IMG/VR virus record: IMGVR_UViG_2690316273_000003 | Location: 1 to 18,702 of that record | Length of the DNA stretch: 18,702 nt | Strand: one strand, 5' to 3' | From: a virus | Lineage: Duplodnaviria > Heunggongvirae > Uroviricota > Caudoviricetes | Shown: piece after piece, positions 8,732-14,513 of the stretch | Numbering within the stretch: position 1 is the first letter of the stretch | Layout: each line of letters begins with the position of its first letter | The notes under the pieces: generated by a model | Seen by the model: the letters and a program-made list of their open reading frames with translations, nothing else | Told to the model about the DNA's origin: nothing | Database searches by the model: none | Position numbers and translations under genes: made by a program

Positions 8732-8748
8732 AAAATTATTAGTGCAAT
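8732..8748 (-). promoter_or_regulatory. P1 C1-repressor operator-like site in the divergent promoter region
   Basis: The reverse complement reads ATTGCACTAATAATTTT, matching the P1 C1 operator consensus ATTGCTCTAATAAATTT at 15/17 positions. Lies in the AT-rich 146-bp gap between the divergent gene starts at 8659 (minus) and 8806 (plus). Confidence 0.45.
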
Positions 8749-8805
8749 TTTGATTGTGAAATGTATCATTCTGCCCTTAAGTAGGTTCTTCACGAGGAAA
8801 CAAAA

Positions 8806-9051
8806 TTGGCAGAACGTGTTGATGATGCAGAGCTGAGCATGAATCAGTTAGAAGCTCTCAAAGACATGGCCATCGATAACATCAGAAAGCAGGCACAGGT
8901 CGTGAGCCAGGTATTTACAGGGAAGTGTCGTTACTGCAATGAATCGATTGAATCAGGCATTTATTGTGACGCTGAATGTGCGCAATGGCACAGGGAAGAG
9001 CAGGCCGCAAAACAGCGTAAATATGGCATGCGACCGGCAGGATTTGACTGA
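8806..9051 (+). CDS. small C4 zinc-ribbon protein (TraR/DksA-like?)
   Basis: 81 aa from a TTG start with RBS GAGGAAA; an alternative ATG at 8839 gives 70 aa. Cys pattern CRYC-x9-C-x3-C. The spacing is shorter than canonical DksA/TraR, so the family assignment is tentative. Confidence 0.45.
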   Translation: MAERVDDAELSMNQLEALKDMAIDNIRKQAQVVSQVFTGKCRYCNESIESGIYCDAECAQWHREEQAAKQRKYGMRPAGFD

Positions 9052-9053
9052 TT

Positions 9054-9632
9054 ATGTTGCGCTTTACTGAGGAAGAGTTTCAGGCTTTTAGTGAGCGTCG
9101 AAATAAGGGGCGGTCCAGGCCAAAAACCAAAAAGGATCCATTCTTATCGCTTGCGCCGGTAAAAGAAGTTTCTCCACATGCGAAGGCACTTGCAGCACTT
9201 GCAAAGAACCCAGACCTGCGCGACGGAAATTGCGAGCACTTCGAGCAGGTTTTCATTTTTGATTACTTCGAACGCAAGCACCCTGACATCTATGAGCTGT
9301 TGCATGCAACGCCTAACGGAGGGAAACGTTCAAAAGCAACCGCCGGGAAAATGAAGGCTGAAGGGCAGAAAAAAGGTTATCCGGACATGAGTCTCGATAA
9401 AGCATGCGGTATTTATCACGGCATGCGAATTGAGCTTAAAGAACCAAATGGTAAAGCCCCGACGAAAGAGCAGATCGCCTGGATGCGCAGGCTTAGAGAG
9501 GAAGGCTACTACGTTGTTCTTGCGTATGGTGCAGAACAAGCGATTACCGCCATCCTGGAATACATAAGTCTTAAAAAGGGTGAGGCTATTGAGCATGTAT
9601 TGAACGGCGATAAGTGGTTGCATGCTGCTTAA
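9054..9632 (+). CDS. VRR-NUC domain nuclease-like protein
   Basis: 192 aa. Motif KKGYPDMSLDKACGIYHGMRIELKEPNGKAPTKEQIAWMRRLREEGYYVVLAYG fits the VRR-NUC G-x-PD...E-x-K pattern. Confidence 0.6.
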   Translation: MLRFTEEEFQAFSERRNKGRSRPKTKKDPFLSLAPVKEVSPHAKALAALAKNPDLRDGNCEHFEQVFIFDYFERKHPDIYELLHATPNGGKRSKATAGKMKAEGQKKGYPDMSLDKACGIYHGMRIELKEPNGKAPTKEQIAWMRRLREEGYYVVLAYGAEQAITAILEYISLKKGEAIEHVLNGDKWLHAA

Positions 9633-9698
9633 AATAATAAATTAATTAGTGCATGTACGCTCTTTGTGGTAGTGCACTTTAACATCGGGAGAATAATC

Positions 9699-9854
9699 GT
9701 GTCATCCAAGGTTAATTATGAGTCGCTGGCATCGGTCATGCCGCGTAATGAACAGGAAACAGATGCTGTAGTGGACCCTGTAATCGCTGAAATGAATGCT
9801 CGCCTGGAGGCTGAATTTGCAGCTGAGAATGAACATACCACCCAGGGCGACTAG
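9699..9854 (+). CDS. hypothetical small protein (about 51 aa)
   Basis: In-frame GTG at 9699 with RBS GGGAG 8 nt upstream, inside track ORF 9666-9854. No motif. Overlaps the start of the next gene. Confidence 0.25.
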   Translation: MSSKVNYESLASVMPRNEQETDAVVDPVIAEMNARLEAEFAAENEHTTQGD

Positions 9855-10458
9855 GACTGTTTTTTGTGTCGGTAGCGGTCCGTCACTCACTCGTGAGGAC
9901 TGTGCTGCTATAGAAAAAACTGGCTGTTCAATCATCGCGGTTAACAATTCCTGGCAGATGTTCGATGACATTTATGCTTTATACGCCGGTGATTTGTCAT
10001 GGTGGAAGCAATACGGATCCACCATACCGGGAGGGAGGTTCCGCAAAGTGACAGCCAACCTGGCGGCGGCGAAATCATTTTCGTTGGAGTACAGGCGATA
10101 TTGTGGACCGGCGGAAGGGGTAAATAGCGGCGCGCAGGCTATCAGTCTGGCTGCTGAATCAGGGGCTGAAGTAGTGGTATTAGTCGGCTATGACTGTTCT
10201 CTGCAAAACGGCCTTCATTGGCATGGCGCGCACCCTCAAGCACTACGGAATCCAACGCAGGTGTCTATTTCAAAATGGCAACAGCAGTTCCTGGATACCC
10301 GCAAAAAACACGCAGATTTACATATTTTGAATGCAAGTAGGAGCAGTGCAATTCAATGTTTCCCAAGAATAAATTTAGAGGCAGTGATCGCGTTATTATC
10401 GTCGGCAGTGGCCCAAGCGCCGCAAACTTTGTTGCGCCGCGCGGAGTGCCGATTATAG
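9829..10458 (+). CDS. MptE-like / GT42-like putative nucleotide-dependent transferase, paralog 1
   Basis: Core VFCVGSGPSLT...IIAVNN...VVLVGYDCS resembles the GNGPSL...CN...GxD pattern of Cst-II sialyltransferases and Maf/MptE-like (DUF115) proteins. Start chosen at the internal ATG 9829; the track ORF begins at 9796. The 3' end overlaps the start of paralog 2 by about 100 nt in another frame. Confidence 0.45.
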   Translation: MNIPPRATRTVFCVGSGPSLTREDCAAIEKTGCSIIAVNNSWQMFDDIYALYAGDLSWWKQYGSTIPGGRFRKVTANLAAAKSFSLEYRRYCGPAEGVNSGAQAISLAAESGAEVVVLVGYDCSLQNGLHWHGAHPQALRNPTQVSISKWQQQFLDTRKKHADLHILNASRSSAIQCFPRINLEAVIALLSSAVAQAPQTLLRRAECRL

Positions 10459-12654: not shown

Positions 12655-12655
12655 A

Positions 12656-13918
12656 ATGAGCACTTCAGCACAAAACCAATCAATCGAAAATGTATCTATC
12701 CCTGACGTCCTGAATGCCGGTATCCCGGCCATTATCCAGAACATCCGGGCCGCGCAACGCCGCGTTAGTTGTGATGACCTCACAGCACGTTTTTTTGATA
12801 ATGCGGTTCAGTCAGCGGAGATGCTTCACGCACAGCTTATTGATGTTTATAACGCAGAAGCTGATAGCCATAACTCCATGGTAGATGCAGCTGAAAATAT
12901 GCAGTTGGATCTCGGTCTGAAGGGTAAAGAAATTGAAGAGCTTCAGCTGGAAATTGAACATTTGAAACGCCAGCAACAGGACGCGATCGACGATGCGACG
13001 CATGACGCCAACCAGCGTGCTGATAATGCCGAACGTATAAGCATTGAGCTGGAAACAAAACTCAATGAAATGACCACGATGGTTGAACTGCGGAACTCAC
13101 AGATTTCAACGCTAAAATCTCAATATAAAGAGATCATGAAACTTGATCCTTTTAACCTTGAGAAACGCTATAACAAAGCTAAAAGCGAGCGACAGGAACT
13201 GCGTAAGCAGGTCGCCGACCTTAACCAACAGCTCAAAAAAACTATTAAAGATGCAAGCGAAGCGCGCGTGGCATTTGCTAATAAAAAAGCAGAGGTTACC
13301 GCGCTGGTTAATGAGAATGCCAAATTTGCGACGCTCAAGAAGGAAATGTATGGCATTACTGAGCGCCGTTTCCCTGCAAGCAAACTTCATCCGACGTTAG
13401 GGCAAATCTCCTTCTTCCCGCGCCTCCTGGCTTATGGGATCTCATCGCCTAAAGAGTTCAATAACGAGCGTCCTTATATCGTTTCTAAGCTGGACTTTGC
13501 TTATCAGTTCTGCTGCGACATGGGCTATGCCATTGATATCCGGATCAACGAATGGTTGATGCCAAACTTCCAGCCGTTGGCCATTTTCCGCGAGTTCCAG
13601 CCGGAAGGTTGGGTAGAGTTCTTCCATGAATTGATCTGTAAAGAGATGGAAAGCCGCCGCCCGGAACTGGTCCGTCGAGTTGAGTGGGCGCAAGAGGTTA
13701 TGTTGGCAGAGGCAGAGCTGCCGTTCGAATCGGAATTTATTGATGATCTGGGAGCTAAAGGGCTGCATACCCTGTTTGATGTGGTTACCCGCCGTCATGA
13801 GCAGTTGGTTGTCGAATTGGGTTTAGAGGAAACAGCGGCAAGAAGACTTCTCGATGTTTGCTATGCACGTAGCGATGCATGGGAAAAAGAGAACGGCGGC
13901 ACTATTTACGTTCGCTGA
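12656..13918 (+). CDS. hypothetical protein with a long coiled-coil N-terminal half and an uncharacterised C-terminal domain
   Basis: 420 aa. Residues about 60-240 are heptad-like and rich in E/K/Q/L (LKGKEIEELQLEIEHLKRQQQDAIDD...RQELRKQVADLNQQLKK). The C-terminal 180 aa are globular with several Cys/Trp. No catalytic motif recognised. The gene looks more AT-rich than its neighbours by eye. Confidence 0.6.
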   Translation: MSTSAQNQSIENVSIPDVLNAGIPAIIQNIRAAQRRVSCDDLTARFFDNAVQSAEMLHAQLIDVYNAEADSHNSMVDAAENMQLDLGLKGKEIEELQLEIEHLKRQQQDAIDDATHDANQRADNAERISIELETKLNEMTTMVELRNSQISTLKSQYKEIMKLDPFNLEKRYNKAKSERQELRKQVADLNQQLKKTIKDASEARVAFANKKAEVTALVNENAKFATLKKEMYGITERRFPASKLHPTLGQISFFPRLLAYGISSPKEFNNERPYIVSKLDFAYQFCCDMGYAIDIRINEWLMPNFQPLAIFREFQPEGWVEFFHELICKEMESRRPELVRRVEWAQEVMLAEAELPFESEFIDDLGAKGLHTLFDVVTRRHEQLVVELGLEETAARRLLDVCYARSDAWEKENGGTIYVR

Positions 13919-13940
13919 CAGTTACAGTGTCACTTTTAAT

Positions 13941-13971
13941 GCTGGTGGAGTGCGCCCACCAGCATTTTTTT
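13941..13971 (+). terminator. rho-independent terminator after the 420-aa gene
   Basis: Stem GCTGGTGG / CCACCAGC with loop AGTGCGC, followed by ATTTTTTT. Begins 23 nt after the stop codon. Confidence 0.75.
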
Positions 13972-13990
13972 CGTCCAATGAGGAGGGCAT

Positions 13991-14497
13991 TTGAGTATTT
14001 TCAATAAACACGCACACCAGGAACGTCCGTACATCGTCATAGTAGATATTGATGGGACGATATCAGAGGCAACGGAAGACAGGCTGCATTTACTTCCACC
14101 ACCTGGCAAAGGTGCATTAACAGAGCACTGGAACGAGTTTAACCTTGCCTGTGACACTGATGCTCCCATCACTCCAGTTATTGATATGGTGCGCCAGTTG
14201 TCCGGCATTTACACCCTCTGGTTTGTAACCGGGCGCTGTGAGATAGCCAGGGATAAAACACGAGCCTGGTTGCGTAAGCACGTAACAAATGGGGCTGAGC
14301 CTTTGCTATCTATGCGTCCTGCCACCGATGACAGAAATGACGGTCCAGCAAAGATTGATCTCCTGAAGAAAATTGGTCTAAGTAAAATTGCGTTCGCGCT
14401 GGAAGATAAGATTGAAGTGGCGCGTGTTTTCAGGAGTCACGGCGTACTTACGTTAATGGTCAGGGAGTATGAAAACGCGCTTCTTCATCAACAATAA
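13991..14497 (+). CDS. HAD-superfamily phosphatase-like protein
   Basis: 168 aa from a TTG start with a strong RBS (AGGAGG 5 nt upstream). HAD motif I VIVDIDGTI (DxDGT). Candidate motif II at WFVTGR. An Asp-rich segment near the C-terminal third (ATDDRNDG). Confidence 0.5.
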   Translation: MSIFNKHAHQERPYIVIVDIDGTISEATEDRLHLLPPPGKGALTEHWNEFNLACDTDAPITPVIDMVRQLSGIYTLWFVTGRCEIARDKTRAWLRKHVTNGAEPLLSMRPATDDRNDGPAKIDLLKKIGLSKIAFALEDKIEVARVFRSHGVLTLMVREYENALLHQQ

Positions 14498-14513
14498 TTG
14501 CTCTAATAAATCT
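14497..14513 (+). promoter_or_regulatory. P1 C1 operator-like site (best match in the window)
   Basis: ATTGCTCTAATAAATCT matches the consensus ATTGCTCTAATAAATTT at 16/17. Overlaps the TAA stop of the HAD-like gene and precedes the operon starting at 14596. Confidence 0.55.

Follow-up and report, generated by a model that had tools for sequence, protein, structure and literature searches.

Predicted C1 repressor operators of a P1-like phage-plasmid at transcription-unit boundaries in virus record IMGVR_UViG_2690316273_000003

The first 18,702 nucleotides of virus record IMGVR_UViG_2690316273_000003 (Duplodnaviria; Heunggongvirae; Uroviricota; Caudoviricetes), the whole stretch analyzed here and termed the window, contain several copies of a 17-bp motif that are located between genes. 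The question raised by this locus is whether these copies are operators of C1, the immunity repressor of phage P1. A sequence-only reading had proposed that they are. The operator consensus on which it relied, ATTGCTCTAATAAATTT, is identical to P1 Op72a, and it matches the 17-bp asymmetric C1 operator consensus in the literature (PMC8546580, citing Lobocka et al. 2004). In P1, dispersed operators are bound by C1 and lytic genes are repressed; Lxc strengthens C1 binding via a ternary complex, and the Coi and Ant proteins antagonise C1 (PMC8546580).

A scan of both strands of the window with ATTGCTCTAATAAATTT, with up to three mismatches permitted, gives exactly four matches, each with agreement at 14–16 of the 17 positions. 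These are at positions 8732–8748 (minus strand, ATTGCACTAATAATTTT, two mismatches), 12356–12372 (plus strand, ATTGCTCTAATAATTCC, three mismatches), 12405–12421 (minus strand, ATTGCTCTAATAAAAAA, three mismatches) and 14497–14513 (plus strand, ATTGCTCTAATAAATCT, one mismatch), and they reproduce the number, quality of match and strands of the sites originally proposed. The chance expectation is 0.06 matches, as estimated from 200 dinucleotide-preserving shuffles, none of which gave four. A fifth, degenerate copy had also been proposed, at 9638–9654. This copy is present, however its position is 9639–9655 on the minus strand, i.e. one base off. Its sequence is CATGCACTAATTAATTT, with 13 of 17 positions in agreement, and the five sites jointly fit ATTGCTCTAATAAATTT at 13–16 of 17 positions. 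The operator cores within the sites are GCTCTAAT.

A position weight matrix (PWM) built from P1 operators, which the sequence-only reading had recommended as a check, gives the same five sites far above anything else in the window. The matrix was trained only on the 15 P1 operators outside of the region homologous to the window, to avoid circularity. The sites score 24.9 bits (8732–8748), 20.1 bits (9639–9655), 21.4 bits (12356–12372), 20.9 bits (12405–12421) and 26.2 bits (14497–14513), which is inside the 8.1–28.2 bit range of the training operators; the next best score in the window is 11.5 bits. Shuffles of the whole window give a mean of 0.67 sites of at least 12 bits. A similar frequency of the motif in coding or shuffled DNA had been named as a point that would speak against operators, and neither is seen. 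Coding sequence makes up 91.3% of the window and contains no site of at least 12 bits, and all five sites are in the 8.7% that is intergenic. When the intergenic DNA was shuffled segment by segment, so that its AT-richness was kept, the mean was 0.002 sites of at least 20 bits, and none of 2000 shuffles reached five. Weaker PWM matches were rejected as operators, i.e. 18626–18642, which sits in an IS10 terminal inverted repeat, and 2853–2869 (the ban/dbn junction) and 14372–14388, which are in coding sequence and are no more than shuffling predicts (1.7 sites of at least 10 bits).

Comparison with the P1 record AF234172, from which 20 annotated operator half-sites were extracted, shows that protein_bind features labeled "phage repressor C1" fall exactly on all five sites (window position equals P1 position minus 69796). 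The five sequences are identical to their P1 counterparts. The site at 8732–8748 corresponds to Op82 (O26, P1 78528–78544), that at 9639–9655 to Op83 (Oppp, P1 79435–79451), those at 12356–12372 and 12405–12421 to Op86a (OpmgRa, P1 82152–82168) and Op86b (OpmgRb, P1 82201–82217), and that at 14497–14513 to Op88 (OpmgT, P1 84293–84309). This base-for-base coincidence bears out, at the level of sequence, the proposal that the sites are C1 operators. It is very probable that they are the orthologues of P1 Op82, Op83, Op86a, Op86b and Op88 in a segment of a punavirus phage-plasmid, and that they would be under C1 repression. The P1 reference record and the literature already contain these operators, with consensus and positions; for Op82 the record refers to an earlier entry, X87824, and for Op88 to M25414 and X98146.

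The C1 operators of P1 and P7, which belong to a tripartite immunity system (C1, Lxc/Bof, Coi, Ant, c4 RNA), agree with those of the window in 17-bp sequence, position and neighboring genes. The operators themselves show no difference, whereas the cargo downstream of Op88 differs after position ~15124 and the segment ends in IS100 and IS10. The "stoperators" of the gp71 repressor of mycobacteriophages L5 and L1 are comparable in that one repressor likewise acts on numerous scattered asymmetric sites, several of which are placed inside transcription units or at their ends and not in one immunity region (PMC1934351). However the gp71 repressor and its motif are unrelated to C1 and the P1 motif, and nothing in the window points to orientation-dependent roadblocking.

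The element had also been described as P1-like, and this is correct. Positions ~102–15124, about 15 kb, are 98–99% identical to P1 AF234172 positions 69898–85040, and the rest matches P1-like phage-plasmids such as SJ46, JL22 and pGF66.2-B. The P1-like phages and phage-plasmids SJ46, JL22, RCS47, P7 and pGF66.2-B cover 77–92% of the whole window; the range for SJ46, JL22 and pGF66.2-B is 84–92%, the best coverage being 92%. Collinearity with P1 over the structural and early genes, as expected of a punavirus, extends from tciA to pap (~15 kb). By the P1 annotation the gene order starts with a truncated upl, tciA-C, a tRNA, ban and dbn, continues on the minus strand with the tail and baseplate genes 5, 6, 24, 7, 25 and 26, and then has pmgL, pmgM, pmgN, pmgO, pmgP, ppp, pmgQ, pmgR, pmgS, pap and a pmgT-like open reading frame (ORF). 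The genes of the ban operon fill positions ~437–3861. Their operator, Op72ab, is expected ~1.1 kb upstream of the window start and is absent from the window because of that position; moreover, IS100 takes the place of that upstream stretch. The tRNA at positions 1137–1212 is called Met (CAT) by ARAGORN and tRNA-Ile2 in the P1 record (CAT, ileX-like, presumably lysidine-modified), which is a routine ambiguity.

The sites are at operon boundaries, as had been stated; Op83, Op86a and Op88 closely follow stop codons and Op82 is between divergent genes. Op82 is found in the divergent control region of gene 26 and pmgL, with the pmgL-pmgM unit (8806–9632, plus strand) downstream of it. Op83 starts 7 nt past the pmgM stop codon and is ahead of the pmgN-pmgO-pmgP-ppp-pmgQ unit (9699–12354, plus strand). 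Op86a starts 2 nt past the pmgQ stop codon. Op86b is inverted relative to Op86a at a distance of 49 bp and is followed after 15 nt by the pmgR start codon; the pmgR-S unit is at 12436–13918 on the plus strand (P1 annotation; PMC9024508). Op88 starts on the final base of the pap stop codon (0 nt), and the unit downstream of Op88 is at 14596–18430 on the plus strand. Boundaries that have no operator are pmgS/pap, where there is a strong terminator at 13938–13966, and the convergent gap between dbn and gene 5.

The P1 record also places predicted promoters at the operators. Op82 overlaps the predicted −10 region of P2pmgL and the −35 region of P1pmgL, and it adjoins the Lpa-dependent late promoters LP26/LPpmgL. 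Op83 is just downstream of the predicted −10 region of PpmgN. Op86a contains the −35 sequence TTGCTC (12357–12362) of the predicted PpmgR, the −10 sequence of which is TAAAAC at 12380–12385. Similarly, Op88 contains the −35 sequence TTGCTC (14498–14503) of the predicted P2pmgT, with TAAAAC at 14521–14526. A promoter-like module, TTGCTC-17 nt-TAAAAC, is common to Op86a and Op88.

No c1 gene is found within the window. The sequence-only reading had placed a C1-type repressor gene elsewhere in the element, and this fits with all of the full-length close relatives that share the region, since these encode C1. A tblastn search with P1 C1 gives 98.6–100% identity in P1, P7, SJ46, JL22, RCS47 and phi456. 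In the closest plasmid, pGF66.2-B, a gene annotated as "phage repressor protein C1" is found ~16 kb beyond Op88, and the plasmid has all five sites as well as the lpa operator and the cluster of immC operators. Two further phages support a link between motif and repressor, in that Cronobacter phage JK004, which encodes a C1 protein of 76% identity, displays at least eight strong intergenic P1-type sites in 26 kb, whereas in phage D6, which has no C1 match, 16.6 kb of sequence contains no site of at least 12 bits, not even in the vicinity of the D6 ppp homologue. Phage vB_EcoM-673R5 has the five operators nearly unchanged, and its C1 match is 65% identical and in two pieces. The C1 match of phage 813R1 (88%) is also in two pieces. 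The split match in 673R5 could be due to a frameshift, a mosaic c1 gene or a sequencing problem.

Several observations weigh against the reading of the five sites as C1-repressed operators. In a comparison of 83 related loci, which are 98–99% similar and most of which do not reach into the Op82 region, variable positions are not depleted overall in the operators (16 of 84) relative to other intergenic positions (63 of 307, p = 0.88), and Op88 shows many rare variants. Among the operators only Op86a/b are clearly more conserved, with 3 of 34 positions variable versus 17 of 47. The sample is too shallow to decide, and the test is uninformative rather than contrary. The promoters of the P1 record are predictions with weak consensus matches (~8 of 12), and those at the operators were not called by a generic promoter scan of the window. 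A further point comes from the two ends of the segment. Positions 1 to ~106 are an end of IS100, an insertion sequence (IS) of the IS21 family, which interrupts upl. Positions 18620–18702 are an IS10 end (CTGATGAATCCCCTAATGATTTT...), with a match to RNA-OUT (RF00240, 44.3 bits), and truncate the last ORF, which starts at 18445. The exact IS100/P1 and P1/IS10 junctions were in none of the plasmid, E. coli genome, viral, genome or metagenome records searched, i.e. this IS-decorated P1-like element is absent from the searched databases. With IS100 and IS10 on either side of the P1-like DNA and no source replicon found, c1 may be absent from this replicon and the operators unoccupied. The window could derive from a complete phage-plasmid that has taken up two IS elements, or from a stranded fragment that lacks c1.

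In the case of a stranded fragment the sites would be genuine C1 operators by descent, left in a replicon that has no c1; the promoters would be constitutive or silent and the motif a relic. The IS ends, the broken upl and last ORF and the missing junctions are in line with such a history. However P1-like phage-plasmids that are otherwise intact commonly carry single IS insertions, as P1 does with IS1 and IS5. Between the IS ends, 18.5 kb of DNA is collinear with intact relatives and has intact ORFs, and none of the five operators is mutated with respect to P1. Orphaned operators are considered unlikely. A different proposal is that the motif is a repeated promoter or module-boundary element, i.e. 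an AT-rich cassette junction containing a −35 sequence that is reused at module exchange and is not a repressor site. The extended TTGCTC-17-TAAAAC shared by Op86a and Op88 is in line with this, as is the break in homology among relatives soon after Op88, at 14686 or 15124, and so is the Op88 flank, which by the P1 record is common to hsd plasmids. A pure promoter element is nevertheless a misfit for Op82 and Op83, which face against their downstream genes, and for Op86b, which is downstream of its promoter. The P1 record annotates the sites as C1 operators and cites earlier GenBank entries for two of them, and in the comparison of JK004 with D6 the motif goes along with c1. A boundary function could add a secondary role only and could not replace C1 binding, and as a full explanation it is very improbable. 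Chance matches in AT-rich intergenic DNA were refuted by the consensus-scan shuffles, the PWM scores and the intergenic shuffles. The motif is AT-rich, the intergenic DNA is somewhat so (55%), and weak matches of 11–12 bits do arise, e.g. the IS10 repeat and ban/dbn matches rejected above. However four matches against an expectation of 0.06, five against 0.002 at the 20-bit level, and identity with annotated P1 operators leave chance a negligible probability. Orthology with the C1 operators of P1 is the preferred reading.

Op83 is annotated as monovalent in the P1 record. A weak and speculative partner half-site, CTTAAAATAATAAATTA (11.5 bits), is located on the plus strand at positions 9628–9644, where its 3′ end shares 6 bp with that of Op83 in inverted orientation; it also overlaps the pmgM stop codon. 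The bivalent operators Op72ab (ban) and Op99ab (c1) have the same geometry of an inverted 6-bp 3′ overlap, and Op99b has a core, AAAATAAT, that resembles the weak half. The arrangement at Op83 differs in that the P1 record annotates no partner, and in that the partner scores only 11.5 bits and extends over a stop codon. Its 11 non-overlapping bases score 4.9 bits versus 1.6 bits for the accepted weak half Op99b, and among the 16 "monovalent" P1 operators a positive partner score is seen for Op83 alone. Positions 9628–9644 are unchanged in 48 of 49 related loci, and the 5′ end of Op83 varies (CATG, TATG, TGTG). Judged from these sequence features, Op83 may be bivalent in a cryptic form similar to Op99ab, and 9628–9644 would be its weak left half.

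The region between Op86a and Op86b displays a terminator-like hairpin at 12381–12413 on the plus strand, AAAACGTGATG-TACACT-CATCACGTTTT, with an 11-bp stem and a T-run after it. Folding of the 101-nt region as RNA gives −26.9 kcal/mol (z = −5.2), and none of 200 shuffles was equally stable. The hairpin is not listed by a simple terminator scan; it is probably an intrinsic terminator that ends the pmgN-pmgQ transcript. The two operators flank the hairpin and PpmgR as a 13-bp inverted repeat (12356–12421), which gives a nested arrangement of terminator, predicted promoter and paired operators, and the three 3′ mismatches of Op86b (AAAAAA for AAATTT) are the terminator T-tract on the other strand. 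The predicted start site of PpmgR is inside the 5′ arm of the hairpin, and transcripts from there would therefore be expected to escape termination. C1 bound on both flanks could gate read-through from pmgN-pmgQ as well as initiation of the essential pmgR, and looping between Op86a and Op86b would possibly occur, by analogy with that described for the immC operators. That operator regions are more elaborate than the "monovalent" annotation implies, as a cryptic bivalency of Op83 and a composite architecture of Op86 would suggest, is considered rather unlikely. These two readings are only mildly novel.

The unit downstream of Op88 contains a 28 amino acid hydrophobic ORF and the pmgT-like ORF, followed by cargo from position ~15124. 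At this point the window departs from the P1 pmgT-U-V region and has cargo that is common to other P1-like plasmids and Stx phages. The cargo (15124–18619) includes an Ead/Ea22-like sequence (PF13935), a DUF551 sequence (PF04448) and several unknown ORFs, and the whole block reads in the plus direction. A terminator-like site at 18407–18423 closes the unit, and no strong internal terminator is found in the cargo block before it. The block is probably co-transcribed from the promoter controlled by Op88. In this lineage, Op88 may put swapped-in cargo of lambdoid type (Ead/Ea22-like, DUF551) under C1 control.

The 28 amino acid ORF (MNTAFKIIMAAIYFWLFSITFGGIVAHG), at positions 14596–14682, is unannotated and has an AGGAG ribosome-binding site. 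A Pfam scan of small ORFs (this ORF, PmgR and PmgL) gave no significant match. Between Op88 and this ORF is a strong minus-strand terminator at 14568–14546 (z = −4.2). AF234172 remarks that the Op88 flank is common to the sequence downstream of hsdR in hsd plasmids, and in phage 673R5 a minus-strand hsdR directly follows the equivalent of positions 14546–14682. The terminator may be a relic of an hsd cassette or a docking point for one.

Scoring of the P1 record itself gave some additional observations. A strong unannotated PWM match, ATTGCTATAATTATTTG (18.8 bits), is found at AF234172 positions 1485–1501, between cre and c8, and another (17.5 bits) is at 17166–17182, inside darB. The number of P1 operators is given as 22 in PMC8546580, versus 20 half-sites annotated in AF234172. 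Omat/Op2b is annotated in AF234172 as 18 nt (2628–2645) and is marked minus, whereas the operator CATGCACTAATAAATAT reads plus at 2628–2644. This looks like a strand or coordinate slip.

The P1 literature and annotation suggest how the sites would function. In the prophage state, C1, which in intact relatives is encoded ~9–16 kb further along, would bind each asymmetric site, and the co-repressor Lxc would strengthen the binding. Op86a and Op88 would carry the sigma-70 −35 hexamer TTGCTC within the bound sequence, Op82 would cover parts of two predicted pmgL promoters, and Op83 and Op86b would be placed just downstream of a promoter. Because the operators overlap predicted promoters or lie just past them, bound C1 would be expected to block the transcription of four rightward early units, at initiation or in early elongation, i.e. 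pmgL-M, pmgN-Q (including the ppp phosphatase), pmgR-S and the cargo on the pmgT side. Inactivation of C1 by Coi or Ant, or its loss, would allow these units to be transcribed.

The finding is correct but ordinary, and it adds nothing new to the biology of C1. Its value is mainly one of annotation, in that it assigns the segment to a P1-like phage-plasmid. In a lysogen that makes C1, four early or accessory blocks, including the variable cargo next to Op88, would be silent, and they would be turned on at induction.

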